The position numbers and the translations under genes were made by a program. 64,000 nucleotides of DNA from an uncultured Bacteroidales bacterium (lineage in GTDB: Bacteria; Bacteroidota; Bacteroidia; Bacteroidales; UBA10428): the NCBI GenBank assembly GCA_963752195.1, contig CAVVXI010000003.1, positions 282,338-346,337 on the forward strand, written 5' to 3'. A model generated the notes under the pieces. It was not told where the DNA came from. It did no database searches and worked only from the letters and a program-made list of their open reading frames with translations. Positions 33,675 through 50,060 of the stretch are shown here, piece by piece; positions within the stretch are counted from its first letter, which is position 1, and every line of letters starts with the position of its first letter.

Positions 33675-34304
33675 ATGGAAGAAGGAACAAGATATGCCTG
33701 GCTTGATATGGCAAAGCGCATGCAGGCGCTGGCACAATCCGGACTTGAATACTCGGATAACAAATACGACAGGGACCGGTATCAGCAAATGAGAGAGCTG
33801 AGCCTGGAGATCATGCATGATTTTACGGGACTGAAAATGGACAGGCTGGTTGGTGTTTTTGCCTCGGAACAGGGATACCAGACCCCAAAAGTGGACGTCC
33901 GTGGAGTTGTTTTCAGGGGTGACCAGATACTGATGGTACGTGAAACCATCGACGGGAACTGGTCCCTTCCGGGTGGATGGGCCGATGTTGGCCTTACCCC
34001 GTCTGAAGTGGCTGTTAAAGAAGTCCGGGAGGAATCCGGCCTTGAAGTGGTTCCTGAAAGATTGCTGGCTGTCCTTGATAAAAAAAGGCATAACCATCCT
34101 CCGGACCTGTTCCATATTTATAAGATCTTTATTTTATGCCGGGAGACCGGGGGAGAGCTTAAAGGCGGAATGGAAACCAGTGAAACCGGTTTTTTTGGAC
34201 CCGACGAATTCCCTCCGCTTTCCGTTCCAAGGATTTCAACGGAACAGATCCGGCTGATGTATGAATTTAAAAACGATCCGCTGAAGCCCGCTGCGTTTGA
34301 TTAA
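33675..34304 (+). CDS. Nudix hydrolase with Nudix_N domain (ADP-ribose pyrophosphatase-like)
   Basis: AQSGLEY..YDRDRY, GYQTPKVDVR, Nudix box GGWADVGLTPSEVAVKEVREESGL. Confidence 0.92.
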   Translation: MEEGTRYAWLDMAKRMQALAQSGLEYSDNKYDRDRYQQMRELSLEIMHDFTGLKMDRLVGVFASEQGYQTPKVDVRGVVFRGDQILMVRETIDGNWSLPGGWADVGLTPSEVAVKEVREESGLEVVPERLLAVLDKKRHNHPPDLFHIYKIFILCRETGGELKGGMETSETGFFGPDEFPPLSVPRISTEQIRLMYEFKNDPLKPAAFD

Positions 34305-37300
34305 TACTCGTTCCAGCTTTTAATTGCAATTTCTTCGAGCGGTAATTTACACACGGCCATCAGAAAAGCGCTGGCAAGCCGTCCGTTTGTAATCAGCGGA
34401 ATATTGAAGTCAATGGCACTGCGGCGGATCAGGTAGTCATTGCTCAGTTCGGTCTTCGACAGGTCCTTCGGAATGTTGATCACCAGGTCGATCATCTTGT
34501 TCCGCAAATAATCGAGCGTATTGGGTTTCTTGTCCTCATCGGGCCAGTGAAGCATGGTGGCCGTAACGCCGTTCATTTCGAGGAACTGGGCTGTGCCCCG
34601 GGTGGCAAAAAGATTATATCCCTTTTCCGCAAGCAATTTGCAGCTGTTGACAAGTTCAACTTTTGACCGCATTGGCCCGGTTGATAACAGGATGTTTTTC
34701 TTTGGATAAGAGTATCCGACGGAAAGCATTGATTTAAGAATTGCCTCATAAAAATTTTCACCGATGCATCCCACTTCACCGGTGGAGGCCATATCCACTC
34801 CGAGAATCGGATCGGCTTTCTGCAACCGTGAAAAGGAAAACTGGGGAGCCTTTACGCCGATACAATCGAGATCAAATGCCGATTTGTTCGGTTTTTCAAC
34901 CGGAATTCCAAGGATCACATGGGTGGCAAGTTCAATGAGGTTGACTTTCAGTACTTTTGAAACAAAAGGAAAGCTGCGTGAAGCACGGAGGTTGCACTCG
35001 ATAACCTTAATGTCATTGTCCTTGGCCAGGAACTGAATATTGTACGGCCCGGTTATATTGAGTGCCCGGGCGATCTGCCGCGATATGCGCTTGATGCGGC
35101 GCATGGTTTCAAAGTATATCTTTTGGGCCGGGAAAACGATGGTCGCATCCCCGGAATGGACACCGGCAAATTCCACGTGTTCACTGATGGCATAAGCGAT
35201 CAGTTCTCCTTCGCGGGCCACCGCATCAATTTCAATTTCCTTGGCCTGTTCAATAAATTCCGAAACCACCACAGGGTATTGTTTTGATACCTTGGCTGCC
35301 AGGGTGAGATAATGTTCCATCTCATCCCGGTTGGAAACCACATTCATGGCTGCCCCCGACAATACATACGATGGCCGGATAAGCACAGGGAAACCCACTT
35401 CATCCACAAAGTCGTGGATTTCACGAATGCTGGTCAGTTCCTTCCAGCGGGGCTGGTCGATTTTCAGATCGTCGCAGAGCTGCGAAAATTTATGCCGGTT
35501 TTCTGCATTGTCAATGGATTGGGATGAGGTACCCAGGATATTTACTTTCTGGCCGTCGAGCCGCATAGCCAGGTTATTGGGTATCTGGCCCCCCATGGAA
35601 AGAATTACGCCATGCGGATTTTCCAGTTCAATGATATCCATGACACGCTCAAAAGACAGCTCATCAAAGTACAGCCTGTCGCAAACATCGTAATCCGTGC
35701 TTACCGTTTCCGGATTGTAATTGATCATTACCGAGCGGTATCCTGCATTGTTAATGGCATACAGCGCATTTACGCTGCACCAGTCGAATTCCACGCTGCT
35801 CCCGATGCGATAAGCCCCGGAACCCAGGACAATGACCGATTTATGGTCCCCCAGGTATTTGACATCATTCGAAGAACCGCTGTAGGTAAGGTATAAATAG
35901 TTTGTCTGGGCAGGATACTCGGCTGCCAGGGTGTCAATTTGCTTTACAAAAGGCAGGATGCCCAGTTTTTTGCGGTGTTCGCGCACTTCGAGCAGTCCGT
36001 CTTCCATGTATTCGTTCCCGTTCTTGAAAATGGAACGGGCAATCTGAAAATCTGAAAATCCGGCTACTTTGGCCCTCTGTAAGAGCCTGAACGGAATTTC
36101 TTCCAGGGTACTGAACTGGTCCAGTTCATTTTTAAGGTTGAAAATTCCCTGGAGCTTATACAGGAACCAGGGATCAATGCGGGTGAGAGCATGAATTTTT
36201 TCGACGGAATATCCCTTGGAAAAGGCATCGGCAATAACGAAAATACGCATGTCTGTTGGTTCTGACAATTCCTTCTCCGTATCTTCAAATTCAAGATCCC
36301 GGTTGCCGACGAAGCCGTGCATTCCCTGGCCGATCATTCGCAGCCCCTTCTGGATGGCTTCTTCAAAAGAACGTCCGATGGCCATTACCTCGCCCACACT
36401 TTTCATGCTGCTGCCGATCAGCTTTGAAACGCCGATAAATTTATTCAGGTCCCAGCGCGGAATCTTGCACACAATATAATCCAGGGCCGGTTCAAAAAAG
36501 GCCGAGGTGGTTTTTGTAATTGAATTCTTTATTTCGTGCAGGCCATAACCGACTGCCAGTTTTGCCGCCACAAAAGCCAGGGGGTATCCCGTAGCTTTGG
36601 AGGCCAGGGCACTGGAGCGTGAAAGCCGGGCATTGACCTCGATCACCCTGTAATCTTCCGAACACGGATCAAGCGCGTATTGTATGTTGCATTCCCCAAC
36701 GATACCGATATGCCTTATGATCTTGATGGCCAGCTGGCGGAGGGAATGGTATTCCGAATTGGTCAGCGTTTGTGACGGAGCCACTACGATGCTTTCACCG
36801 GTATGGATGCCAAGAGGGTCAAGATTTTCCATGTTGCATACGGTGATGCAATTGTCATGGCAATCGCGCACTACTTCATATTCTACTTCTTTCCATCCCT
36901 TCAGCGATTTCTCAACCAGGATCTGCGGCGCATAGGAAAAGGCCTTTTCCGACATTTTCAGCAATTCGGCATCGTTGCTGCAAAAACCACTTCCCTGTCC
37001 GCCCAGCGTATAAGCAGCCCGGATAATGACCGGGTAGCCAAGTTCGTTGGCTGCCTTCACCGCATCGTCCATATTGGTTACCGCAAAGCTCTGGATCGTT
37101 TTTACATTGATTTCATCCAGTTTTTTGATGAAAAGATCCCGGTCTTCCGTATCCATGATGGCCTGAACAGGAGTTCCCAATACCCTTATGTTGTGCTTTT
37201 CAAGAATGCCCGCCCGAAAAAGTGCGATGCCGCAATTCAGGGCCGTTTGGCCACCGAAGGCAAGCAATATGCCATCGGGCTTTTCTTTTTCAATAACCTG

Positions 37301-37519
37301 CTCTACAAAATACGGGGTCACCGGCAGAAAATAAATAATATCGGCGATCCCTTCGGAAGTCTGCACCGTGGCAATGTTGGGATTGATCAGTACTGTTTGT
37401 ATGTTTTCTTCCCGAAGCGCCTTTAATGCCTGTGAGCCCGAATAATCAAATTCTCCTGCTTCGCCGATCTTAAGTGCGCCGGATCCGAGTACAATGACCT
37501 TTCTGATTGATTTGTCCAT
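34301..37519 (-). CDS. carB: Carbamoyl-phosphate synthase large subunit
   Basis: GSGALKIGEAGEFDYSGSQA, two ATP-grasp domains, C-terminal MGS domain. Confidence 0.97.
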   Translation of the reverse strand: MDKSIRKVIVLGSGALKIGEAGEFDYSGSQALKALREENIQTVLINPNIATVQTSEGIADIIYFLPVTPYFVEQVIEKEKPDGILLAFGGQTALNCGIALFRAGILEKHNIRVLGTPVQAIMDTEDRDLFIKKLDEINVKTIQSFAVTNMDDAVKAANELGYPVIIRAAYTLGGQGSGFCSNDAELLKMSEKAFSYAPQILVEKSLKGWKEVEYEVVRDCHDNCITVCNMENLDPLGIHTGESIVVAPSQTLTNSEYHSLRQLAIKIIRHIGIVGECNIQYALDPCSEDYRVIEVNARLSRSSALASKATGYPLAFVAAKLAVGYGLHEIKNSITKTTSAFFEPALDYIVCKIPRWDLNKFIGVSKLIGSSMKSVGEVMAIGRSFEEAIQKGLRMIGQGMHGFVGNRDLEFEDTEKELSEPTDMRIFVIADAFSKGYSVEKIHALTRIDPWFLYKLQGIFNLKNELDQFSTLEEIPFRLLQRAKVAGFSDFQIARSIFKNGNEYMEDGLLEVREHRKKLGILPFVKQIDTLAAEYPAQTNYLYLTYSGSSNDVKYLGDHKSVIVLGSGAYRIGSSVEFDWCSVNALYAINNAGYRSVMINYNPETVSTDYDVCDRLYFDELSFERVMDIIELENPHGVILSMGGQIPNNLAMRLDGQKVNILGTSSQSIDNAENRHKFSQLCDDLKIDQPRWKELTSIREIHDFVDEVGFPVLIRPSYVLSGAAMNVVSNRDEMEHYLTLAAKVSKQYPVVVSEFIEQAKEIEIDAVAREGELIAYAISEHVEFAGVHSGDATIVFPAQKIYFETMRRIKRISRQIARALNITGPYNIQFLAKDNDIKVIECNLRASRSFPFVSKVLKVNLIELATHVILGIPVEKPNKSAFDLDCIGVKAPQFSFSRLQKADPILGVDMASTGEVGCIGENFYEAILKSMLSVGYSYPKKNILLSTGPMRSKVELVNSCKLLAEKGYNLFATRGTAQFLEMNGVTATMLHWPDEDKKPNTLDYLRNKMIDLVINIPKDLSKTELSNDYLIRRSAIDFNIPLITNGRLASAFLMAVCKLPLEEIAIKSWNEY

Positions 37520-37561
37520 AGTTTGCCGCAGCCCCGATAAAAATTAGTCCTATATTTGGCC

Positions 37562-37569
37562 CAAAAGTA
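37562..37569 (-). promoter_or_regulatory. Putative carB promoter -7 element (TACTTTTG on minus strand)
   Basis: TAnnTTTG about 45 bp upstream of the carB start. Confidence 0.55.
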
Positions 37570-37588
37570 CAAATATTTTTAAATTCAC

Positions 37589-37645
37589 CTTGCATAATTA
37601 TAAAACATTGTATAAATTTGCATCGTCAATGAATAACTATTCAAC
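37589..37645. promoter_or_regulatory. ARG boxes overlapping the argR promoter
   Basis: Cores TGCAT-AATT-ATAAA (37591-37604), TGTAT-AAAT-TTGCA (37609-37622), TGAAT-AACT-ATTCA (37630-37643). The last two 18-mers are 3 bp apart. -7 element TAAATTTG at 37613-37620. Confidence 0.82.
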
Positions 37646-38122
37646 ATGGGAAACAGAACAGAACGATTACTGGCCATCAGGAATATAATTTCCTCCCAGA
37701 AAGTATCGAGTCAGGAAGAGCTTCTCGACCTTCTTGAGAAGAAGGGATTGAATTATACCCAGGCAACGCTTTCCCGGGACCTGAAATTTTTAAAAGTGAA
37801 TAAAATTTCAGATCATGAGAAGGGCTACATTTATGAACTGCCCGATCAACATCATATACCGGGCCATGAGCTTGCTGAAAGCTATGCTGCACAAGGTTTT
37901 GTATCTATCCAGTTTGCAAACAGGCTGGGTGTTATCAAGACACTTCCGGGGTATGCCCCGAGCATTGCATCCCTCATTGACAAAGTGAATCCTTTTGAAA
38001 TTATCGGGACCCTTGCCGGGGATGATACCATTCTGATCATTCCCCATGACAATGTCACGGAAAAGGATGTTATCAATACACTGATCATAATTGTTCCGGA
38101 ATTAAAAGATAAATTAAAGTAA
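37646..38122 (+). CDS. argR: Arginine repressor
   Basis: [33 protein letters not shown]. Confidence 0.96.
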
Positions 38123-38123
38123 G

Positions 38124-39362
38124 ATGGATAACAAAAGGGTAATACTGGCATACAGCGGCGGACTGGATACTTCGGTGATTTTAAAATGGCTGATCGATAA
38201 GGGCTATGAAGTGATCGCTTATGTTGCCAACGTGGGCCAGGACGATGATTTTGAAGAAGTGGAAAGGAAAGCATTGAAAATCGGGGCCTCGCGGGTATAT
38301 ATCCAGGATCTCAGGAGAGAATTTGTAACCGATTATATTTTTCCGGCCCTTAAAGCCAATGCCTTGTATGAAGGCCGTTACCTGCTGGGAACCTCCCTGG
38401 CCAGGCCGGTCATTGCAAAATACCAGATAAAGATTGCGGCCGAGGAGAAAGCATCGCTGGTGTCGCATGGCGCTACCGGGAAAGGAAATGACCAGGTTCG
38501 TTTTGAATTGTCATACTATGCGCTGAATCCCGAAATAAAGGTCCTGGCTCCCTGGAAAACAGAGGAATTTCTTGACCAGTTCAAGGGCAGGACGGATATG
38601 CTGAATTATGCTACCAAACACAATATTCCGGTAAAGGCAACCGTAAAAAAACCATACAGCGAGGACGACAACCTCATGCACATCAGCCATGAAGCCGGTA
38701 TTCTCGAGGATCCTGCCTATCAGCCGGAAAAGGAAATGTTTACAAAGATTGTTCCGCCACAGCTTGCCCCCGACAAGGAAGTTCACCTTGAAATTCACTT
38801 TAAGGACGGCATTCCGATCCGGGTTGTCAATAAGGAAAGCGGGATTGATATTACCGATCCGCTTGATTTGTTCATTTACCTGAATAAGGTAGGGGGAGAG
38901 AACGGGGTGGGTATGCTCGATATGGTCGAGAACCGTTTTGTCGGGATCAAATCAAGGGGCGTATATGAAACACCGGCCGGCACGATCCTCCTGCATGCGC
39001 ATATGGATATTGAAGGGATTGCCATGGACCGGGAGGTAATGCGCCTGAGGAACATGCTGTCCCCTGTTTTTGCTGAAATCGTATACAACGGTTTCTGGTT
39101 CAGTCCCGAAATGGAATTCCTGCGCGCGGCAATTGACAAAAGCCAGGAGCTCATTGACGGTACCGTATGGCTTACCCTGTATAAAGGCAACATAATTATT
39201 GACGGACGCGAATCTCCCAGCTCATTGTACAACAAGGAACTTTCAAGTATGGATATCGCGGGGGGATTTGATCAGAAGGACAGCGCCGGTTTTATTAAGA
39301 TCAATGCCATCAGGCTCATGGCGCACCATGCCATAACAAAGAGGCAGGGAAAAACCACCTGA
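38124..39362 (+). CDS. argG: Argininosuccinate synthase
   Basis: [40 protein letters not shown]. Confidence 0.97.
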
Positions 39363-39433
39363 AGCAACCTGCAGTCTATTTTCAATTTTCGTTTGCTTCG
39401 GGATGATTGTTCCGGAAACACTATTTTTTTGTC

Positions 39434-40771
39434 ATGAAACTCTGGGAAAAAGGAATACAAACAGACAGGCTGATTGAGCAATTCACGGTCGGAAAAGACC
39501 GGGATCTTGATCTCCTGCTCGCCCGGTACGATGTGATCGGATCGCTGGCCCATGTTGTCATGCTCCGGAGTATAGGCCTTCTGAATGAGGATGAATTGAG
39601 CGCCCTGCGAACAGGGTTGCTTGAAATATACAGTTCCATTGAGAACGGGGACTTTACAATCAGCGACAAGGTGGAGGATGTTCATTCGCAGGTCGAACTG
39701 CTTCTTACACAGAAACTGGGAGATACAGGGAAAAAGATACATACCGCCCGCTCAAGGAATGACCAGGTGTTGCTCGATATTAAACTCTTTATCCGCGAAG
39801 AAATTAACCAGGTCGTAAACCGCGTGGAACATTTGTCGCGCGTGCTCCTGTCCCAAAGCGAAAAATACAAGGCGATACTCATTCCCGGTTTTACGCATCT
39901 CCAGGTCGCTATGCCTTCCTCCTTCGGCCTCTGGTTCGGTGCCTATGCCGAATGCCTGGCCGAGGATCTGCTGGCAATGTTTGCGGCTTACAGGATTGCA
40001 GACCTTAATCCGCTGGGTTCGGGAGCCGGATACGGATCTTCATTTCCCATTGACCGGCAGCTGACAACCAGCCTGCTGGGGTTTGAAAACATGCATTACA
40101 ATGTTGTCAATGCCCAGATGAGCCGCGGACGCACGGAGCGGATGACATCCTTCGGACTTTCCGCATTGGCAGGCACTTTATCCCGGCTGGCCGGGGATGT
40201 TTGCCTGTTTGCAAGCCAGAATTTCGGATTGCTGCAGCTTCCGGACGAATTCACCACCGGTTCAAGCATCATGCCGCACAAAAAAAATCCGGATGTATTT
40301 GAGCTGATCAGGGCAAAATGCAATAAGATACAAGCCCTGCCCGGTGAAATTGAACATATTTATATCAACCTTCCTTCGGGCTATTTCAGGGATATGCAGA
40401 TAATCAAGGAATCGTTCCTGCCCGTATTTTCCGGGATGAACGCCTGCCTTTCCATGGCTGCCTATGCCCTTGAAAAGATAATTCCCCTGGAAAACACCCT
40501 GAAGGACGACCGGTATAAGTATATTTTTTCGGTGGAGGAGGTGAACAGGCTGGTAATGCAGGGGACTCCTTTTCGCGATGCCTACAAAGAGGTAGCGGCT
40601 CAAATTGCGGAGGGTTCCTATGCCGGTGATTCCCGGCCAGCGCACACGCATGAAGGATCCATTGGAAATTTATGCAATAACAGCATTGCGCTGAAAATTG
40701 AAAAGGCAGTTGAACAGTTTCATTTTGAACGAAAAGACAGGGCCATTGAAAAATTGCTAAGGGGAATATGA
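39434..40771 (+). CDS. argH: Argininosuccinate lyase
   Basis: MKLWEKG, HTARSRNDQ, GFTHLQ, GSSIMPHKKNPD. Confidence 0.96.
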   Translation: MKLWEKGIQTDRLIEQFTVGKDRDLDLLLARYDVIGSLAHVVMLRSIGLLNEDELSALRTGLLEIYSSIENGDFTISDKVEDVHSQVELLLTQKLGDTGKKIHTARSRNDQVLLDIKLFIREEINQVVNRVEHLSRVLLSQSEKYKAILIPGFTHLQVAMPSSFGLWFGAYAECLAEDLLAMFAAYRIADLNPLGSGAGYGSSFPIDRQLTTSLLGFENMHYNVVNAQMSRGRTERMTSFGLSALAGTLSRLAGDVCLFASQNFGLLQLPDEFTTGSSIMPHKKNPDVFELIRAKCNKIQALPGEIEHIYINLPSGYFRDMQIIKESFLPVFSGMNACLSMAAYALEKIIPLENTLKDDRYKYIFSVEEVNRLVMQGTPFRDAYKEVAAQIAEGSYAGDSRPAHTHEGSIGNLCNNSIALKIEKAVEQFHFERKDRAIEKLLRGI

Positions 40772-41442
40772 AGAAGCAGACGATTATAGTGAGAATTGAG
40801 ATTTCCACGCTCCTCGGCGGGGAAGGGAAAATTAACAGGCGGAAAATGGACAGGCTTGCCATGGTGCTGACGAATCTGCATAACAGCGGAAAGCATGTCA
40901 TGGTGGTTTCTTCCGGGGCTATTGTATTGGGAAATGAAAAACTCAAACTTCAGACCGGCCCGGCCAATCTGCTGGAAATGCAGGCGGCGGCCTCCGTGGG
41001 ACAGGCGGAACTGATCCGGTGGTACCAGCATTCGTTTGATGAATATAACCAGATCATTGCGCAGGTATTGCTCACCAGCGATATCATGCTTTATCCCCAG
41101 CGGGTTGTAAATACAAGAAATACATTTAACCGGTTGCTCGATATGAGCATCATTCCCATCATCAATGAAAATGATTCCGTTTCAACCGCGGATATCGAAT
41201 TTGACGATAATTATCCTCTTGCACTGATGGTGGCGGAAATTGCAAAAGCCGGTTTCATTATCATCAAGATGGAAATCGACAACAAGTACCTCATTGTTCT
41301 GCGCGGGAAAAGACCTGCCCTCCTTGTGGATGGAGAAACAGAACTCCAGGAAAAACTTGAATCTTTTTGCCAGGTTATGATCCCGGATGACAACATGGAG
41401 GCAGATCCGTTTCCTGCTTCCATTGGAGAAATATTTTTTTAA
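40768..41442 (+). CDS. Glutamate 5-kinase-like protein with degenerate catalytic motifs (ProB paralog)
   Basis: VSSGAI, AASVGQAEL, AQVLLT, IPIINEND align with the adjacent ProB. KIGTSS is RIEIST, GDND is DDNY, and SDIDGLY and TGGMxTK are absent. Confidence 0.85.
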   Translation: MKKQTIIVRIEISTLLGGEGKINRRKMDRLAMVLTNLHNSGKHVMVVSSGAIVLGNEKLKLQTGPANLLEMQAAASVGQAELIRWYQHSFDEYNQIIAQVLLTSDIMLYPQRVVNTRNTFNRLLDMSIIPIINENDSVSTADIEFDDNYPLALMVAEIAKAGFIIIKMEIDNKYLIVLRGKRPALLVDGETELQEKLESFCQVMIPDDNMEADPFPASIGEIFF

Positions 41443-41474
41443 CAGGTACAAGGATGAGAAGAAAGGATTGGATT

Positions 41475-42293
41475 ATGGATTACCGGGATGTACTTAAAAA
41501 CAAGCACCGCATCGTCGTCAAGATAGGGACATCATCCCTTTCTTACCCGAATGGCCGGATGAATTTCCAGAGCATTGAAAAACTGGCTTATGTTTTGAGC
41601 GCTATTCGCGGGAATGGCACCGAGGTTATGCTGGTAACCTCCGGCGCCATCGGGGTAGGAGCCGGAAGGCTTGGACTTACCGAACGACCGGGCGAGCTGG
41701 ATAAAAAGCAGGCCCTTGCAGCCGTGGGTCAGGCGGAACTGATGAAGATATACCAGAAATTTTTTGAGGAATATAACCAGACGGTGGCCCAGGTGCTCCT
41801 GACCAAGGATGTGGTGACAATTGACACAAGAAATCAGAATGCCAAAAGAACACTGATCAAACTGCTCGAAATGAAGATCATTCCTATTATCAATGAAAAT
41901 GATACCATTGCGACAAACGAAATTGAATTTGGCGACAACGACACCCTTTCCGCCATTGTAGCCTCCCTGGTTGAGGCAGATCTGCTGGTTATCCTTTCGG
42001 ATATCGACGGTTTGTATTCCGCCGATCCGAAAACGGAAGAATCAGCCGAAATAATCCATTCGGTGCTTGAAATAACCCCGGAACTCGAACAGCTGGCCAC
42101 CGGGGCCGGTTCATCCTTTAGCACAGGAGGCATGGTCACAAAGATATCGGCTGCGAAAATATGCCTGAAAGACGGCATTGATTGCATCATCACAAGCGGT
42201 TCAGACCCGGCCATTATTTTTGACATACTCCAGGGGAAAGAAGTAGGGACCCATTTTGTTGCACAAAACGCAAATATGATCGATCATGCATGA
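41475..42293 (+). CDS. proB: Glutamate 5-kinase (no PUA domain)
   Basis: VVKIGTSSL, TSGA, NEND, FGDNDTLS, SDIDGLY, TGGMVTK. Start 41454 or 41475. Confidence 0.95.
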   Translation: MDYRDVLKNKHRIVVKIGTSSLSYPNGRMNFQSIEKLAYVLSAIRGNGTEVMLVTSGAIGVGAGRLGLTERPGELDKKQALAAVGQAELMKIYQKFFEEYNQTVAQVLLTKDVVTIDTRNQNAKRTLIKLLEMKIIPIINENDTIATNEIEFGDNDTLSAIVASLVEADLLVILSDIDGLYSADPKTEESAEIIHSVLEITPELEQLATGAGSSFSTGGMVTKISAAKICLKDGIDCIITSGSDPAIIFDILQGKEVGTHFVAQNANMIDHA

Positions 42294-43545
42294 TTTAAAA
42301 GAACAACTGGTTCAAAAAGCGATCCGCGTAAAAAAAGCTTCGCGTGAACTGGCAAAGCAGAATACGGGAGTTAAAAACAGGGCCCTTGAGATCATTGCAG
42401 GGGAAATTGAGGCAAACCGGGAAAGAATAAAGGAAGAAAATCGCAAAGATATTGAATCCGGCAAAAGCAAAGGATTGTCGGATTCTTTCATCGACCGCCT
42501 CACCCTCGACGATAAGCGGATTGACGGGATGATCCGCATACTGCAGGAGGTGATTCACCTCCATGACCCGGTGGGGGAAATTTATGATATGAATACAATG
42601 CCCAACGGGCTCAGGGTTGGATTGATGCGCGTGCCTATCGGAGTCATCGGGATTATTTTCGAATCGCGCCCCAACGTTTGCATAGAAGTGGCCTCTCTGA
42701 CAATCAAATCAGGAAACGGGGTCATCCTGCGCGGAGGCTCTGATGCGAAACATTCAAACCTTCTGCTCTGCAACCTTATCCGGTCGGGACTTAAAAAGGC
42801 AGCACTGCCTGAAGATTGCGTAGCCGTTGTGGAAGACACTTCTCATGAATCGGTTGTGGACCTGGTGAAACTGAAGGAATATATTGATGTGATCATACCC
42901 CGCGGTGGCCTGAAACTGATCCGGCTGGTGGAAGAAAACTCGCTGATCCCGGTAATCCGGCATGACCTTGGCATCTGCCATACCTATGTGGATGAATTTG
43001 CCGAAATAGGCATGGCCCGTACCATCTGTTACAATGCCAAGGTGCAAAGGCCGGGTGTTTGCAATGCCATGGAAACGCTGCTGGTTCATTCCGAAATTGC
43101 CGGTTCATTTCTGCCCTTGATGAAATCGGATTATGACAAGGCGGGGGTTACCTTAAAAGGATGTGAAAAGACCCTGAAACTATTGCCGGGCATAGAGGCA
43201 GCCACAAAAGAAGACTGGAGCACAGAATACCTCGATCTTGTGTTGTCGGTAAAAATCGTTGACAACATTGATGAAGCAATTGAACACATCAACACATTCA
43301 GCTCCCATCATTCGGATTCGATCGTAACGGATAGTTATTCCAACGGCATGAAATTTATCTCGGAGGTGGATTCTGCTGCCTGCTTTATCAATGCTTCCAC
43401 GCGTTTCAATGACGGGTATGAATTCGGGCTGGGGGCAGAAATGGGAATCAGCAATCAGAAATTGCACGTGCGGGGACCCATGGGGCTGAAAGAATTAACG
43501 GCTCCCAAGTATATTGTCTTTGGAAACGGGCAGGTGAGGAACTAG
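42286..43545 (+). CDS. proA: Glutamate-5-semialdehyde dehydrogenase
   Basis: PIGVIGIIFESRPNV, IPRGG, CNAMETLLVH, NASTRFNDG, HVRGPMGL. Confidence 0.96.
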   Translation: MHDLKEQLVQKAIRVKKASRELAKQNTGVKNRALEIIAGEIEANRERIKEENRKDIESGKSKGLSDSFIDRLTLDDKRIDGMIRILQEVIHLHDPVGEIYDMNTMPNGLRVGLMRVPIGVIGIIFESRPNVCIEVASLTIKSGNGVILRGGSDAKHSNLLLCNLIRSGLKKAALPEDCVAVVEDTSHESVVDLVKLKEYIDVIIPRGGLKLIRLVEENSLIPVIRHDLGICHTYVDEFAEIGMARTICYNAKVQRPGVCNAMETLLVHSEIAGSFLPLMKSDYDKAGVTLKGCEKTLKLLPGIEAATKEDWSTEYLDLVLSVKIVDNIDEAIEHINTFSSHHSDSIVTDSYSNGMKFISEVDSAACFINASTRFNDGYEFGLGAEMGISNQKLHVRGPMGLKELTAPKYIVFGNGQVRN

Positions 43546-43677
43546 TTGGAACAGACCCTTCAAGTGGTCGCAGACCCTTGAAGTGGTCGGATGAGAATGA
43601 AATGAACAATGAATAATGAACAATGAAAAACGACCCCGAAGCGGTCAGATCTCAATAACCGTGGGTGCAACCCGCTG

Positions 43678-43818
43678 AGTGAAAAATTAAAAGATAAAAA
43701 CTAAAAATGGAAAACAATTTGAAGATTTGAAAATGTGTTTAATGGGATAAAATCGTACAGACAAGGCATTGCCTTGTCTTTACAATTCAAATTTCCAGAA
43801 ATGCAAAACTGCAAAACT
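43678..43818 (+). repeat. Dispersed 102-bp element, copy A, with a 39-bp insertion
   Basis: Matches the reverse complement of 54687-54788 except one substitution and the insertion 43754-43792. Confidence 0.92.
43754..43788. mobile_element. REP-like palindrome inserted with a 4-bp AAAT duplication
   Basis: GTA-C-AGACAAGGCA-T-TGCCTTGTCT-T-TAC hairpin; AAAT at 43750-43753 and 43789-43792; absent from copy B. Confidence 0.7.
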
Positions 43819-43933
43819 TCTACTGCACGACTGCACGACTGCACGACTGCCTTTAGATTTGAATCATACAGCACATTAGCCCATTAGCCCATTAGCACAT
43901 TAGCCCATTAAAATAAACAAATCAATAAATCCC

Positions 43934-45283
43934 ATGCAACTGAACGAATTTATGCAAAGACTTGAAGAGCTGACCGTCAGTGCTTCACAAATTGACAAAG
44001 GACTTTTTGAGACCTATAATGTCAAGCGCGGTTTGAGGAATCAGGACGGCTCGGGCGTTCTGGTAGGACTGACCAATATCGGGGATGTGATCGGTTATGA
44101 TAAAAAGGACGGGACAGTGGTTCCCCGGGAAGGCAAACTTTTTTACAGGGGTGTGGATGTGGAAGATCTTGTGCATGGCTTTCAAACCGATAAAAGACAT
44201 GGTTTTGACGAAACGGTTTACCTGTTGCTCACGGGAAAATTACCCAACAAAACGGATCTCGATTTATTCTCCTCTTACCTTGCCGGGCACAGGGACCTTC
44301 CCAACAGCTTTGTTAACCTTATCCTTTCGTTCAGGGGAAAGAACATCATGAATATGCTGGCCCGCTCCATCCTGGCCATGTATACACAGGATGACGAGGC
44401 GGAGAATTATTCACATGTGAATCTCCTGAAACAGTCGTTGAATTTCATTGCCAAATTTCCGGTGATTGCCGCGTACGTTTATTTCGGATTCCGCCATACC
44501 TATCAGCGAAAATCATTGATTTTCAGGCACCCCGACCCCTCTCTCAGTACGGCCGAGAATTTTCTGTATATGCTCAAAGGGGAAAAATACGACAGACTGG
44601 AAGCCGATATTCTCGACCTGGCCCTTGTGCTGCATGCGGAACATGGAGGAGGAAACAATTCGACATTTGCCACAAGGGTTATCAGTTCGGCAGGAACGGA
44701 TACCTATTCGGCAGTTTCCGCCGGGCTTGGTTCATTAAAAGGCTATTTGCACGGTGGTGCCAACCTGCAGGTAGAGGAAATGATGAAAGACATCAAGAAA
44801 CATGTGAAAGATTGGTCAGATAAAAAAGAATTGCGGGCTTACATGCAGAAGATACTGAAAGGAGAGGCCGGAGACGGATCCGGAAAACTTTACGGAATTG
44901 GTCATGCCATTTATACACTTTCGGATCCCAGGGCTATCCTGCTGAAGGACAAGGCAAGGGAACTGGCCGGAACCAAGGGTAAACTGGATGAATATAAATT
45001 GTATGAATCCGTTGAGGAATTGGCGCAGGAAGCTTTCGCAAGCTTTAAGGAAGGAAGCAGCAAGGTGATCAGCGCCAATGTGGACTTTTATTCTGGTTTT
45101 GTATATAAATGCATTGACATACCGCAGGAGCTGTTCACCCCTATTTTTGCCGTGGCCCGCATGGCCGGATGGTGTGCCCACCGGTTGGAGGAAGTAACCT
45201 TCACTTCACGAAGGATCATACGCCCGGCCTATAAGAATGTATTTGGAAAAATTCCCTATGAGTTGCTGGGGGAAAGAAATTAA
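43934..45283 (+). CDS. gltA: Citrate synthase
   Basis: KRGLRN.DG.GVLVGLT, HAEHGGGNNSTF, LHGGAN, GIGHAIY..SDPR, ANVDFYSG, RIIRPAY. Confidence 0.92.
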   Translation: MQLNEFMQRLEELTVSASQIDKGLFETYNVKRGLRNQDGSGVLVGLTNIGDVIGYDKKDGTVVPREGKLFYRGVDVEDLVHGFQTDKRHGFDETVYLLLTGKLPNKTDLDLFSSYLAGHRDLPNSFVNLILSFRGKNIMNMLARSILAMYTQDDEAENYSHVNLLKQSLNFIAKFPVIAAYVYFGFRHTYQRKSLIFRHPDPSLSTAENFLYMLKGEKYDRLEADILDLALVLHAEHGGGNNSTFATRVISSAGTDTYSAVSAGLGSLKGYLHGGANLQVEEMMKDIKKHVKDWSDKKELRAYMQKILKGEAGDGSGKLYGIGHAIYTLSDPRAILLKDKARELAGTKGKLDEYKLYESVEELAQEAFASFKEGSSKVISANVDFYSGFVYKCIDIPQELFTPIFAVARMAGWCAHRLEEVTFTSRRIIRPAYKNVFGKIPYELLGERN

Positions 45284-45342
45284 ATTTCTTAAATCACCCT
45301 GTTAAAAAAGGGACTAAGTTTTTTGAATAAATGCAAATTTAT

Positions 45343-45350
45343 TATCTTTG
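45343..45350 (+). promoter_or_regulatory. Putative gltBD promoter -7 element (TATCTTTG)
   Basis: TAnnTTTG with an upstream TTTG at 45322-45325. Confidence 0.65.
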
Positions 45351-45450
45351 CCTGCAAGAAAATGATGAAATATGATTTTGCAGCATAAATACGATAATAA
45401 ATTTAATAAAACTCAACCTTGTTGAGGGTGGAACAATTGTGGAATAACAC

Positions 45451-45486
45451 AAGCCATTCTCGACTCGCGAGAATGGCTTTTTTTTT
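45451..45486 (+). terminator. Intrinsic terminator in the gltB 5' leader (candidate attenuator)
   Basis: 12-bp perfect stem AAGCCATTCTCG/CGAGAATGGCTT, loop ACTCG, T-run to 45486, 30 bp before the gltB ATG. Confidence 0.85.
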
Positions 45487-45515
45487 GAAATGGAATCTTA
45501 ACGGAGACAAAAAAT

Positions 45516-48500
45516 ATGACAAGCAAAGGATTGCCTAAAAAGCAGGGACTTTACGACCCGGCTGAGGAAAAAGATAGTTGTGGGATCGGATTTGTAGCCC
45601 AGATAAAGGGAATTAAATCGCATGACATTATCCATCGGGGGCTTGAAGTACTTGAGAACATGTCGCACAGGGGCGCCGAAAGTGCGGACAATGTTACCGG
45701 GGATGGCGCCGGTATTCTGATCCAGGTGCCGCACAAACTGATCCTGGCCAAGGGCATCAAGGTTCCGGAAGAGGGAAGATATGCCACAGGTCTCGTCTTT
45801 CTCCCCCAGGGTGCAAAAGAGCGCGCAGCATGTGAAAGGATTCTCATCGATGCCCTGGTTGCCGAGGGACTTGATGTAATTGATATAATCGATGTAATCG
45901 TGGATAATTCCATTCTTGGGGAAATTTCCCGAAGTTCGGAACCCTTTATCCGGCAGATTTTTGTTACAGGCGATTATGAACAGGAGGAGCTTGAACGGAA
46001 GGTATATATTGCCCGCAAGGTTGCTGAAAACCAGGTCAGGCAATCGTCTGTTAAGGACAGGGAATCGTTTTATCTTCCCAGTCTGTCCTCAAAAGTTTTG
46101 ATTTATAAGGGAATGTTTACCTCCCACCAGTTGCGCCTGTATTTTAACGACCTGCGCGACAGCCGGCTCGAAAGTGCAATTGCCCTTATCCATTCGAGAT
46201 TCAGCACCAATACTTTCCCCACCTGGGATCTTGCCCAGCCCTTCCGCCTGCTGGGTCATAACGGGGAGATCAATACAATCAAGGGCAACCGCATGTGGAT
46301 GAGTGCCAGGGAATCCCTGATGAAATCCGGACTTTTCGGGGAGGACCTGAAAAAGATCTTTCCTGTAATTGAACCGGATAAAAGTGACTCGGCCTCCCTT
46401 GACAACGTACTTGAATTTCTTGTGCTCACGGGGAAGTCGCTTCCCCATGCGCTAAGCATGCTGATCCCCGAATCATGGAATGACAAAAACCCGATTCCGG
46501 AAAGCCTCAAAGCATTTTACGAATATCATTCCACCATCATGGAGCCCTGGGATGGACCCGCTTCCATCGTATTCAGCGATGGAAGGTTCATCGGCGGCAC
46601 TCTCGACAGGAATGGCCTTCGCCCCTCGCGGTATGTCATTACCAAAAATGATATGATCGTGATGGGTTCGGAAGTGGGTGTCCAGGTTTTTCCCCCGGAG
46701 CAGATCAAGGAAAAAGGACGCTTGCGTCCCGGAAAAATCCTGCTCGTCGATACCCGGTTTGGCATTATAGTGCCCGACGATGAGGTAAAGCGCCAGTTAA
46801 CCGGGAGAAATCCCTATTCAAACTGGTTGAAGGAAAACCGGATCGATCTTATGGATATCGAAGTGAAACAGCGTATACCTACTTCCCTGGGCGAAGAATA
46901 TGACAATTACCTCAAGGTTTTCGGATATACAAAGGAGGATTTTGAATTTCTGATTAAACCGATGGCCATCGAAGGCCAGGAACCGGTAAGTTCCATGGGA
47001 AATGATACCCCCCTGGCGGTTATGTCGGATATGCCTCAACGGCTTTTCAACTATTTCCGGCAGCATTTTGCCCAGGTGACGAATCCACCCATTGACCCCA
47101 TACGGGAAGGACTGGTAATGTCGCTTACCAATTACATCGGCGCTGTATCCCGGAATCTGCTCATGGAATCTTCCGCTCAGTGCAAACTGATCAAATTCAG
47201 GAGCCCCATTGTTACAAATACGGATCTTGGCAAGATAAAGAATCTCGATCAGGCGCAATTTTCACACGGCATAATCCCGATGTTTTTTCCGGCCGTTTCC
47301 GGTAATCCGGGAAAGGCGCTTGAAACAGCAATCACTGAAATGTGCCGCAAAGCCGAAGAATCGGTGGACAAGGGACACAATTTTATTATCCTCAGCGACC
47401 GTGGAATTTCCCGCGACAGGGTTCCCATTCCGTCACTCCTTGCCGTGTCGGCTATCCATCATCACCTCATCAATACAAAGAAAAGGATGCAGGTGGGACT
47501 GATTGTTGAAACGGCAGAGCCAAGGGAAGTGAATCATTTTGCCCTGCTTTTTGCCTATGGAGCCAGCGTGGTGAATCCTTACGGGGCCTTTGCCATTATT
47601 GAGAATCTGTGTGAATCAGGGGAAATAAAGGAGAGCTACGTCTCCGCACGCGAACATTTTATCAAGTCGATCGACAAGGGACTGCTCAAGGTGATGTCGA
47701 AAATGGGCATTTCAACCCTGAGAAGTTATCATGGTGCACAAATTTTTGAAGCCATAGGAATATCAAAGGATGTGACAGAACGTTATTTTAGCGGCACCGA
47801 TTCAAGGATCGGCGGAATCGGCCATGATGAAATTGCCCGTGAAGCACTGATCATGCATAATGCTGCTTATTATCCCGATATACAGAATGGAAATGTTTTT
47901 GCCACACAGGGAACATACCACTACCGGAAGAACGGGGAGCAGCATGCATGGAATCCGGAAACAATTGGCCTGCTGCAATGGTCTACCCGTACCGAAGATT
48001 ACGAAAAGTTCAAGGAATTCAGCGCCCTGGCAAACCAGGAAAACCGGAAGCCTCTTTTTCTCAGGGGCTGTATTAACCTGAAAACGGGCAACCCGGTGCC
48101 TATCGAAGAAGTGGAACCCGAAGAAGCCATCCTGAAACGGTTTATTACCGGGGCTATGTCATATGGATCCATCAGCAAGGAAGCCCATGAGGCCCTCGCG
48201 ATTGCCATGAATTCAATCGGAGGAAGAAGCAATACAGGGGAAGGCGGGGAAGATGCTGAAAGGTTTAAAACCCGGCCTGACGGCACCAGCGCACGCAGTG
48301 CAATTAAACAGGTCGCCTCCGGCCGGTTCGGCGTAAATACAAATTACCTGATCAACGCAGATGAGATCCAGATCAAAATTGCGCAGGGAGCTAAACCGGG
48401 CGAGGGAGGCCAGCTGCCGGGACATAAAATCGACAAGATCATTGCCAAATTGCGGCATTCCACAACCGGCATCACACTGATATCCCCCCCTCCGCATCAC

Positions 48501-50060
48501 GATATTTATTCCATCGAAGATCTGGCCCAGCTGATCTTCGACCTGAAATGCACAAACCCGAGGGCGCGGATCAATGTAAAACTGGTATCGGAAAAAGGCG
48601 TCGGAACAATCGCTGCAGGAGTTGCCAAGGCACACGCCGACAGCATAACGATCAGCGGGTGTGAAGGCGGCACCGGAGCCAGTCCGGCCAGTTCGATTAA
48701 ATATGCCGGTCTTCCCATGGAACTCGGCATCTCGGAAGTTCAGCAAACCCTTGTGATCAATAACCTGCGCGACCGGGTTGTGCTGCAAACGGACGGGCAG
48801 CTGAAGACGGGACGTGACGTGGTTTATGCGGGACTGCTGGGAGCCGAGGAGTTCGGTTTTGCCACCGCCTCGCTGATTACCCTGGGTTGCATCATGATGC
48901 GTAAATGCCACCTGAATACCTGTCCCGTTGGCGTGGCCACCCAGAATCCGGAACTCCGGAAGCGTTTTATTGGCAAGTCGCAGTACCTCGTTACCTACTT
49001 CAGGTTCATTGCCAGGGAGGTTCGGGAATTGATGGCCGAAATGGGCTTCCGGAAATTTGAAGACCTCGTGGGTCGTGTCGACCTCATCGAACAGCGAACG
49101 GATATTGACCACTGGAAGGCCTCCAAACTTGACCTGTCACAAATCCTGTACAGGCCGAAAGAAGCTTCCAAATTCGCAAACCATTGCACCTGTCTTCAAA
49201 AACATAAGATTGAAGATGTGATGGACCATGAACTGATTAAATTGGCCAACAAAGCCATCAAAAACCGGGAGAAAGTATGGATTTCCCGCAAAATCACGAA
49301 TACCGACAGAACCACAGGGGCAATGTTATCGGGTGAAATTACCCGTACACACGGAGAAGCCGGACTTCCCGACGGAACCCTGATCTGCAAATTCAAAGGA
49401 TCTGCCGGCCAGTCATTCGGGGCATTCCTTTCCCGGGGGGTCCATTTTGAACTCGAAGGGGACTCAAACGATTACCTGGGGAAAGGACTTTCCGGAGGAC
49501 GGATCGTGGTTGTCCCGCCCAGGGGTTCCACTTTCAAACCCGAAGAAAACATTATTGTGGGCAATACATTATTGTATGGGGCCACATTGGGGGAAGCCTA
49601 TATCCGGGGGGTAGCCGGTGAGCGGTTTGCCGTACGAAACAGCGGTGCCGTGGCTGTGGTTGAAGGAGTCGGGGACCATTGCTGCGAATACATGACAGGC
49701 GGCCGGGTGGTTGTGCTGGGCAAAACCGGTCGTAATTTCGCCGCAGGAATGAGCGGAGGCATTGCTTATGTGCTGAATGTCAAAGGCAATTTCGACTATT
49801 TCTGCAACACGGGCATGGTTGAATTAAGTGCTGTAGGTGATCATGATGATTTACTTGAATTACAAAAACTTATCAATAATCATTATTTATATACCCGCAG
49901 CGAACTGGCGGAAAGTATCCTTGTAAAATGGGATGAATACCTGCCGAAATTCGTAAAAGTCATTCCGCTGGAGTACAAAAAGGTGCTGGAAGAACAAAAG
50001 CTCAGCCAGCTGATAGAGAAGATCCAGAAGACAGAGGACGAACCTCATTTTCATTACTAA
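45516..50060 (+). CDS. gltB: Glutamate synthase large subunit
   Basis: CGIGF Ntn Cys, HSRFSTNT, HNGEINT, KIAQGAKPGEGGQLPG, CIMMRKCHLNTC, GXGXG domain. Confidence 0.98.
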   Translation: MTSKGLPKKQGLYDPAEEKDSCGIGFVAQIKGIKSHDIIHRGLEVLENMSHRGAESADNVTGDGAGILIQVPHKLILAKGIKVPEEGRYATGLVFLPQGAKERAACERILIDALVAEGLDVIDIIDVIVDNSILGEISRSSEPFIRQIFVTGDYEQEELERKVYIARKVAENQVRQSSVKDRESFYLPSLSSKVLIYKGMFTSHQLRLYFNDLRDSRLESAIALIHSRFSTNTFPTWDLAQPFRLLGHNGEINTIKGNRMWMSARESLMKSGLFGEDLKKIFPVIEPDKSDSASLDNVLEFLVLTGKSLPHALSMLIPESWNDKNPIPESLKAFYEYHSTIMEPWDGPASIVFSDGRFIGGTLDRNGLRPSRYVITKNDMIVMGSEVGVQVFPPEQIKEKGRLRPGKILLVDTRFGIIVPDDEVKRQLTGRNPYSNWLKENRIDLMDIEVKQRIPTSLGEEYDNYLKVFGYTKEDFEFLIKPMAIEGQEPVSSMGNDTPLAVMSDMPQRLFNYFRQHFAQVTNPPIDPIREGLVMSLTNYIGAVSRNLLMESSAQCKLIKFRSPIVTNTDLGKIKNLDQAQFSHGIIPMFFPAVSGNPGKALETAITEMCRKAEESVDKGHNFIILSDRGISRDRVPIPSLLAVSAIHHHLINTKKRMQVGLIVETAEPREVNHFALLFAYGASVVNPYGAFAIIENLCESGEIKESYVSAREHFIKSIDKGLLKVMSKMGISTLRSYHGAQIFEAIGISKDVTERYFSGTDSRIGGIGHDEIAREALIMHNAAYYPDIQNGNVFATQGTYHYRKNGEQHAWNPETIGLLQWSTRTEDYEKFKEFSALANQENRKPLFLRGCINLKTGNPVPIEEVEPEEAILKRFITGAMSYGSISKEAHEALAIAMNSIGGRSNTGEGGEDAERFKTRPDGTSARSAIKQVASGRFGVNTNYLINADEIQIKIAQGAKPGEGGQLPGHKIDKIIAKLRHSTTGITLISPPPHHDIYSIEDLAQLIFDLKCTNPRARINVKLVSEKGVGTIAAGVAKAHADSITISGCEGGTGASPASSIKYAGLPMELGISEVQQTLVINNLRDRVVLQTDGQLKTGRDVVYAGLLGAEEFGFATASLITLGCIMMRKCHLNTCPVGVATQNPELRKRFIGKSQYLVTYFRFIAREVRELMAEMGFRKFEDLVGRVDLIEQRTDIDHWKASKLDLSQILYRPKEASKFANHCTCLQKHKIEDVMDHELIKLANKAIKNREKVWISRKITNTDRTTGAMLSGEITRTHGEAGLPDGTLICKFKGSAGQSFGAFLSRGVHFELEGDSNDYLGKGLSGGRIVVVPPRGSTFKPEENIIVGNTLLYGATLGEAYIRGVAGERFAVRNSGAVAVVEGVGDHCCEYMTGGRVVVLGKTGRNFAAGMSGGIAYVLNVKGNFDYFCNTGMVELSAVGDHDDLLELQKLINNHYLYTRSELAESILVKWDEYLPKFVKVIPLEYKKVLEEQKLSQLIEKIQKTEDEPHFHY

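Follow-up and report, generated by a model that had tools for sequence, protein, structure and literature searches.

The stretch of DNA analysed here, hereafter referred to as the window, comprises 64,000 nucleotides from an uncultured Bacteroidales bacterium and contains at positions 40768..41442 (+) an open reading frame (ORF) of 224 codons, which encodes a paralog of the glutamate 5-kinase ProB, herein named ProB'. The original prediction had described this frame as an uninterrupted 224-aa ORF overlapping the argH stop codon, which is borne out by the ORF coordinates, as the frame is open throughout and its ATG overlaps the argH TGA as ATGA. The gene is part of a same-strand row, argR-argG-argH-proB'-proB-proA (window 37646-43545), and its product is predicted to be a non-catalytic paralog, in which the N-lobe is intact but the ATP lobe truncated. 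The first gene of the row encodes an argR-like arginine repressor (37646..38122, +), which scores 125.7 bits with TIGR01529 argR_whole, just below the cut-off of 130.45, and is followed by argG for argininosuccinate synthase (38124..39362, +; NF001770 543.2 bits and TIGR00032 475.6 bits, both above cut-off) and argH for argininosuccinate lyase (39407..40771, +; TIGR00838 312.4 bits against a cut-off of 279.5, and Pfam Lyase_1). The real start of argH is probably located at about 39437 rather than at the first in-frame TTG at 39407, as relatives align from residue 7-11. Next to proB', the gene proB (41475..42293, +) encodes a canonical glutamate 5-kinase of 272 aa, which possesses no PUA domain and reaches 325.4 bits with TIGR01027 (cut-off 186); most likely it starts with MDYRD at 41475, as do 16 of 16 relatives examined, and not with the first ATG at 41454, where the ORF opens. 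The row is completed by proA for glutamate-5-semialdehyde dehydrogenase (42286..43545, +; NF001221 586.3 bits, TIGR00407 488.1 bits), which overlaps the end of proB by eight bases.

Comparison of ProB' with the neighbouring ProB by BLASTP revealed 41% identity and 63% positives over 199 residues without a gap (E 2e-48). The homology claimed earlier is real, but its extent had been given as about 160 aa, whereas the alignment covers these 199 residues with the similarity fading after about residue 172. As claimed, the motifs SSGAI (residues 48-52, 40909..40923, +), VGQAEL, AQVLLT and IPIINEND are retained in ProB', and the reported motif exchanges were found as well: RIEIST (residues 9-14, 40792..40809, +) takes the place of the K-x-G-T-S-S phosphate loop (KIGTSS in ProB), DDNY replaces GDND, and TGGMxTK is without counterpart. 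The loss of SDIDGLY was confirmed in part, as the motif is degenerate but not wholly gone; a relic, MEIDNKY, aligns at its position and is unconserved in the ProB' family. The Pfam profile AA_kinase (PF00696) recognizes ProB' with 50.5 bits (threshold 24.9), however only via profile positions 17-171 of 234, while the proB equivalog TIGR01027 remains with 162.7 bits below its cut-off of 186 and is matched by positions 1-169 of 363. Profile comparison of ProB' with the solved glutamate 5-kinases yielded an E-value of about 5e-46.

The substitutions were followed through the ProB' family, whereby motif counts derive from 42 members and invariance counts from an alignment of 46 ProB' sequences. 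At the position of E. coli K10, Arg is found in 16 and Lys in 10 members, with other residues in the rest; the position of E. coli G12 (ProB' residue 11) is Glu in 33 of the 42, and residue 11 or 12, which replace Gly12 and Thr13, is acidic in every member, with the position of S14 being altered too. Within the segment NEND...DDNY (residues 133-149, 41164..41214, +), the first Gly of GDND (E. coli G147) is exchanged to E, D or N in 35 of 42 members, residue 147 is D or N in all of them, and both Asn148 and Tyr149, the latter occupying the position of E. coli D150, are found 42 times out of 42. The T169/D170 region is altered or deleted, and GGM (212-214) together with the K217 helix is deleted, these columns being gaps in 98% of ProB' sequences. 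Twenty-five columns of the 46-sequence alignment are invariant, among them the lineage-specific Y149 and P216; G50, N133, E134, N135, D136, N148 and Y149 are invariant and A51 and I52 are conserved in at least 90%. A survey of those positions which are at least 90% conserved in the short, PUA-less ProBs of the order identified S/G50, G55, Q72, G78-Q79, Y86, Q99, L101, T119, L123 and P130 as kept in ProB', and among the N-lobe positions also N133-E134-N135-D136, I143 and N148, while all positions of the short ProB which touch phosphate or ATP were found to be changed or deleted. Expressed element by element as the ratio of conservation in ProB' to that in ProB, the N-lobe reaches 0.8-1.09, the phosphate loop 0.58, the hairpin 0.42 and the last helix 0.59; the C-lobe remnant (residues 168-224, 41269..41442, +), a divergent part in which the hairpin and a single helix precede a poorly modelled tail carrying a conserved F-P motif (F215, P216), has a mean identity of 0.27-0.33. 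The selective pattern described in the original prediction, with N-lobe and amino-acid pocket kept and the parts for phosphoryl transfer and ATP binding lost, was thus recovered in all 42 members.

According to a cryo-EM preprint on E. coli glutamate kinase (10.1101/2024.09.19.614007), proline interacts with D137 and N134 as well as with the main chain of G51, A52 and I53, the latter three contacting the ligand alpha-carboxylate, and glutamate uses the same alpha-group contacts. These proline contacts correspond exactly to D136, N133, G50, A51 and I52 of ProB'. Judged from its sequence and predicted structure, ProB' is a pseudoenzyme in which everything for ATP binding and phosphate transfer appears to be lost and the amino-acid pocket to be retained; by the same sequence evidence it is not classifiable as a glutamate 5-kinase, despite its naming in the databases.

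The AlphaFold2 model of ProB' (predicted local distance difference test, pLDDT, 86.7; predicted template modelling score, pTM, 0.86) shows a complete N-lobe, followed by a strand, a hairpin, one helix and the poorly modelled tail. The model of ProB (pLDDT 87.2) continues with a Gly-rich loop, helix 219-232, strand 236-241, helix 247-252 and strand 259-261, none of which is matched in the ProB' model. All top matches of a Foldseek search with the ProB' model are glutamate 5-kinases (164-169 columns, root-mean-square deviation 1.8-2.5 Å), and VIA-align superimposed ProB' on glutamate 5-kinase structures with Z 19-22 over 177-198 residues. The structural ranking is headed by glutamate 5-kinases and the glutamate kinase domains of P5CS, followed by UMP kinases, ArgB (Z 12-13) and aspartate kinases. 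In the ESM Atlas, the cluster of ProB' itself comprises 259 members from Bacteroidota (score 0.97). Two more clusters of short proteins consisting of the amino-acid kinase (AAK) fold only, of 192 aa (mostly Pseudomonadota) and 218 aa (Thermodesulfobacteriota), score 0.90 and may represent further truncated amino-acid-kinase proteins.

A large protein search identified 973 ProB' homologs at E <= 1e-3 among 1238 candidates, of which the best 120 are 217-299 aa long, 70-90% identical and derive from metagenome-assembled genomes of Bacteroidales; in their source records the homologs are named 'glutamate 5-kinase' or 'hypothetical protein'. A search of every protein gave 6996 matches at E <= 1e-3 and 53 at E <= 1e-30, and the ProB' signature (x-x-N-Y, no GGMxTK, about 220-250 aa) was present in 18 of 40 representatives examined, down to 35-40% identity. 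Within the genus of the window, ProB' and ProB co-occur in 23 of 24 other genomes, the remaining one, 81% complete, having neither. Syntenic orthologs with the same substitutions are numerous: the order argH-proB'-proB was found in 22 of 22 loci of a first set, with proA following proB in 20 of these and the other two stopping at a contig edge. The proB' frame is intact in 20 of the 22 loci of this set and in 20 of 20 loci of a second one. Three relatives (L005, L020, L021) carry a frameshifted proB', which looks like the result of assembly errors rather than of gene decay, because argH or proA is broken there too and the assemblies are of few contigs and reduced completeness. The ratio of nonsynonymous to synonymous substitution rates (dN/dS, omega; Nei-Gojobori) lies well below 1 for ProB', at 0.025-0.173 in the 9 of 14 pairs with estimable dS, as compared to 0.021-0.155 for ProB (8 of 14 pairs) and 0.037-0.25 for the divergent ProB' tail (residues 167-224; 8 of 12 pairs), whereby dS mostly exceeds 0.8 and the omega values are rough, though none is near 1. 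ProB' is under purifying selection and is not a decaying duplicate. The original prediction had named missing orthologs with these substitutions and a dN/dS near 1 as refuting it, and both checks turned out to support it.

A census of 401 sampled genomes of the order revealed ProB' in 27 genomes from 13 families, the same 27 being returned by two independent queries: a DNA pattern for NEND...NY, which matched 49 genomes of which 27 were true by their flanking codons, and a search for a second, shorter ProB-like match. Outside the order, ProB' was not found in about 293 genomes in a profile search of the phylum (301 genomes, E <= 1e-40), which very divergent members could escape; the sole ProB'-type match of this search came from the genome of the window itself. 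A separate contig scan was dominated by canonical ProBs picked up via IPxxNEND, with about 5 of 79 loci being ProB'-like, and was not used for the distribution. Two types of ProB occur within the order, a short one with open frames of 268-316 aa which are 51-100% identical to the ProB of the window (43 genomes) and a long, PUA-bearing one with open frames of about 355-463 aa and 31-38% identity to it (96 genomes). ProB' accompanies the short type in 27 of 43 genomes, as compared to none of the 96 genomes with the long type and none of the 262 without ProB.

Trees calculated from 169 columns of the N-lobe identified ProB' as a monophyletic clade comprising 42 of 42 sequences (FastTree support 0.999; Shimodaira-Hasegawa-like approximate likelihood ratio test, SH-aLRT, 97.2 in IQ-TREE -fast), and in a subset of 45 sequences all 16 ProB' sequences grouped together at an ultrafast bootstrap of 98. 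In all trees the clade is nested among the short ProBs of the order and never groups with the outgroups, whereby its exact sister varies between runs. The root-to-tip distance is 1.30 for ProB' and 0.49 for ProB, corresponding to an about 2.7-fold faster evolution since the split. Short ProBs without a ProB' neighbour are located in argH-proB-proA rows and are interspersed in the tree among those with one, therefore the linkage to argH is older than the duplication, and repeated losses of ProB' are probable. In terms of these phylogenies, ProB' has a single origin and is best described as having arisen by tandem duplication of the short ProB, the PUA-less glutamate 5-kinase found in this lineage of Bacteroidales. 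The short ProBs of one family, f28 (L125, L126; G192, G051, G307, G408), were flagged for in-frame stops near their N-terminus; genomes of this family carry ArgB, unlike all other short-ProB families sampled, and their short ProBs are sister to ProB' in IQ-TREE -fast (SH-aLRT 98.8) but not in FastTree.

The genome of the window (99.4% complete, 4 contigs) contains neither ArgB (best score 35.8 bits, cut-off 151.3) nor ArgC (50.3, cut-off 233.6) nor ArgJ above cut-off; as controls, Bacteroides thetaiotaomicron exceeded the cut-off for ArgB and 13 of 14 control genomes, not named individually, passed for ArgC. Present are ornithine aminotransferase (OAT; 675.5 bits, cut-off 378.4; C4:286767-287960), ornithine carbamoyltransferase (430.9 bits; C4:918885-919856) and proC (202.6 bits; C3:238723-239499). 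Within the 401-genome set, ArgB above cut-off was found in 0 of 27 genomes with ProB' and short ProB, in 4 of 16 with short ProB only (all of one family), in 89 of 96 with the long PUA-bearing ProB and in 21 of 262 without ProB, related genomes not being independent observations. Five ProB' genomes from five other families all possess OAT and none possesses ArgC. By gene content alone, ProB-ProA probably supplies glutamate semialdehyde both for proline (via ProC) and for ornithine and arginine (via OAT). Such a shared kinase serving proline and arginine would explain why proB-proA is located in an arginine row behind argR. No account of an argR-argG-argH-proB-proA row with an OAT-based arginine route in Bacteroidales was found in the literature searched, in which subscription journals are largely uncovered. 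The row is flanked by the divergently oriented carB (carbamoyl-phosphate synthase large subunit, 1531 bits) at 34301-37519 (-), and the downstream stretch at 43934-50060 (+) contains genes for citrate synthase and a 1514-aa ORF, which from its sequence alone is taken to be the glutamate synthase large subunit; together with the row, these genes make the region one devoted to the metabolism of glutamate, arginine and nitrogen. Counts of promoters and terminators within 37300-44100 were not above those of shuffles (14 versus 10.6 and 13 versus 8.1), with the promoter model being unsuited to the phylum.

Based on these findings a mechanism is suggested to which we assign about an even chance, namely that ProB' serves as a non-catalytic ligand-binding partner of ProB which retunes the feedback of the latter, possibly towards a basic amino acid. 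Here, the retained pocket of ProB' would bind an amino acid, ProB' would associate with the catalytic ProB through its retained N-lobe surfaces, and this association would alter the feedback behaviour of ProB. A specific need for ProB' could arise from the shared use of the kinase, as the arginine branch would be starved if the kinase were simply inhibited by proline. A change of the feedback effector, which the original prediction had considered, gains weight because ProB' genomes, which are without ArgB and ArgC, seem to make arginine through ProB-ProA. Regarding the nature of the ligand, the pocket changes place negative charge and a tyrosine where the gamma-carboxylate and phosphate were located, for which reason glutamate or glutamyl phosphate would be disfavoured as ligand of ProB'. 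Judged from the exchanged residues, the pocket could fit a basic side chain, or equally well be filled by the protein itself. A narrower and tentative version, which must be considered rather unlikely, assumes ProB' to be a sensor of the arginine branch, whose pocket binds L-ornithine or L-arginine and which as part of a hetero-oligomer imposes arginine-branch feedback on ProB or relieves the latter from proline feedback. According to this version, the pocket would be shaped by the acidic residue 11 or 12, the acidic or amide residues 146-147 and the invariant Tyr, and ProB' would replace the control point of the arginine-inhibited ArgB, which was lost with the acetylated pathway.

A functional tie between ProB' and ProB is suggested by the pairwise distances of both proteins, which in 28 genomes follow each other with r 0.906 (partial r 0.78 given ArgH, as compared to a partial r of 0.13 for ArgH), whereby these are paralogs of one fold from related genomes and the correlation comes without a significance test. 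Furthermore, in family f8 (two loci, L116 and L117) the proB'-proB pair stands alone between CvpA-like and radical SAM genes, with neither argH nor proA nearby. A tie is also suggested by the strict co-occurrence of ProB' with the short ProB, and by the PUA domain missing from the latter, which in E. coli promotes proline feedback and assembly. Several observations weigh against a retuning partner of ProB, to which the restrictions on the distance correlation and on the omega values given above also belong. In family f39 (3 genomes; ProB' loci L119, L121 and L123, proB loci L120, L122 and L124), ProB' is unlinked from proB, being located 36 kb away from it or on another contig among unrelated genes. 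ProBs with and without a ProB' neighbour show no systematic difference, with a single, weakly discriminating column, and fusions of ProB' with ProB or ProA were not found among the longer relatives. Twelve sampled genomes possess a short ProB but neither argB nor ProB'; OAT is present in 4 of the 5 that were checked, the fifth being 74% complete. These genomes apparently have the same gene set without ProB', which therefore seems dispensable for the presumed pathway, and the presumed arginine route itself is read from the presence and absence of genes. Finally, the conserved Glu11 could simply fill the pocket and thereby stabilise a ligand-free fold.

In family f39 (L119 at G314:C2:71800-76000, L121, L123), ProB' adjoins an unannotated 265-aa ORF and a gene for a 7TM-HD receptor, while in a fourth genome of this family (G414) short ProB and OAT are present and ProB' was not found. 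The sole longer relative at E <= 1e-30 is a 489-aa protein on one contig (P0271), in which the last 262 residues of ArgH are in frame with a 93%-identical ProB'; its use as a Rosetta-stone fusion was rejected, as it is read as a probable indel or gene-calling artefact at the ATGA overlap.

Among the alternatives to a retuning partner of ProB, the one that survives best, though it has to be regarded as unlikely, assumes ProB' to be a stand-alone amino-acid-binding protein which does not touch ProB but acts as a sensor or buffer on ArgR, ProA, OAT or another target, or as carrier of an intermediate such as glutamate semialdehyde. The unlinked ProB' genes retained in f39 would be expected for such a protein, as would be the conserved ligand pocket and the fact that ProB shows no adaptation to ProB'; likewise, the invariant F-P motif in the otherwise variable tail resembles a docking motif for some partner. 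However, ProB' was never found without a short ProB (0 of 96 and 0 of 262 genomes of the other two groups), proB' and proB together form the smallest unit that is conserved in f8, and the distances of ProB' track those of ProB and not those of ArgH. Less probable still is that ProB' serves as a structural scaffold without ligand sensing, either within the ProB oligomer or as a bridge between ProB and ProA which channels the labile glutamyl-5-phosphate, in effect replacing the PUA domain in assembly. The preprint on the E. coli enzyme (10.1101/2024.09.19.614007) reports its PUA domain to be needed for the assembly of filaments and bundles, and ProB' occurs only alongside PUA-less ProBs, is usually encoded directly 5' of proB-proA and has N-lobe helices which are conserved near the level of ProB. 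A mere scaffold would however leave the invariant ligand-contact residues N133, D136, G50 and N148 as well as the new Tyr149 unexplained, 16 of 43 short-ProB genomes manage without ProB', and linkage to proA is missing in f8 and f39.

Very improbable is a ProB' that is still an enzyme, be it with an unusual phosphate donor, with the ATP lobe of a partner provided in trans or with another activity on glutamate or ornithine derivatives, since the intact substrate pocket and the Lys or Arg found at the K10 position in 26 of 42 members are opposed by the alteration or deletion of the phosphate-loop Gly, D150, the T169/D170 region, GGM and K217, by the absence of half of the nucleotide lobe from the model, by the TIGR01027 score below the equivalog cut-off and by the fact that the remaining hairpin and helix of the C-lobe are the least conserved parts. 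Hardly credible is a decaying duplicate (an incipient pseudogene) or an annotation artefact, as the faster evolution of ProB', the three frameshifted copies and the 16 short-ProB genomes without it are outweighed by the low dN/dS, the 25 invariant columns including Y149 and P216, a frame intact in most loci with the frameshifted ones pointing to assembly errors, and the 973 database homologs.

Compared to known systems, ProB' is most similar to the glutamate 5-kinase ProB (EC 2.7.2.11; E. coli 2J5T/2J5V/2W21/8ZPJ, B. thailandensis 4Q1T, C. jejuni 2AKO), with which it shares the N-lobe fold and the residues for the alpha-amino and alpha-carboxylate groups but not the loop with the catalytic Lys, the helix with GGMxTK and K217 and the second half of the ATP lobe. 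According to the E. coli preprint (10.1101/2024.09.19.614007), the PUA domain touches the partner subunit at its E135-N149 loop and promotes both proline feedback and assembly. Like ProB', the PUA domain of the long ProB is a non-catalytic module, and ProB' occurs solely where ProB lacks a PUA domain; this is a functional analogy only, as PUA has an unrelated fold and belongs to the kinase chain itself, while ProB' is an independent polypeptide with a ligand pocket of its own, and 16 of 43 short-ProB genomes have neither of the two. In N-acetylglutamate synthase (NAGS/ArgA), the AAK domain no longer acts as a kinase but functions in the binding of arginine and in oligomerisation; it is fused to a catalytic GNAT domain and keeps both lobes, with the arginine site not being the old substrate pocket. 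The conversion of an AAK fold to a regulatory role in the arginine pathway would have its precedent in this domain, the comparison having been made via fold lists only; unlike the domain, ProB' is free-standing, truncated and derived from ProB instead of ArgB. Bacillus subtilis ProB and ProJ are catalytic ProB paralogs. Both of these are full-length active kinases whose expression is regulated differently, while ProB' is truncated and without catalytic residues. That duplicated bacterial glutamate kinase genes are known is mentioned in an evolutionary survey of ProB, ProA and P5CS (PMC11061531, with reference to Brill et al. 2011). The same survey, citing Hu et al. 1999, describes the gut isoform of mammalian P5CS as feeding ornithine and arginine via OAT and being inhibited by ornithine (PMC11061531). 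Its pathway logic is the same as that deduced here from gene content, and it is a precedent for the logic but not for the mechanism: the gut isoform is a two-residue splice variant within one fused enzyme, while the regulator proposed here is a dead paralog encoded by a gene of its own. In a term search, neither 'Bacteroid' nor 'truncated' was found in the text of this survey (PMC11061531), and no free-standing truncated or dead glutamate 5-kinase paralog is described in the literature searched, with subscription journals being largely uncovered. New in the present work are the findings that ProB' is confined to genomes with PUA-less ProB, that ArgB and ArgC are missing there while OAT is present, that ProB' arose once, and that the charge of its pocket has switched.

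These findings are of relevance for annotation, as the name 'glutamate 5-kinase' on ProB' proteins would mislead pathway reconstruction. The gene-content result, i.e., a block of families with argR-argG-argH-proB-proA rows and OAT but without ArgB, ArgC and ArgJ, is useful for the prediction of auxotrophies in uncultured Bacteroidales. The feedback control exerted on glutamate 5-kinase is a classical example of allostery, and it is targeted both in strains for proline production and in antibacterial work. If ProB' indeed regulates ProB, it would provide a naturally occurring regulatory module which can be separated from the amino-acid kinase, and it would document how a branch point becomes rewired when a lineage drops the acetylated arginine route and one kinase has to serve two end products.

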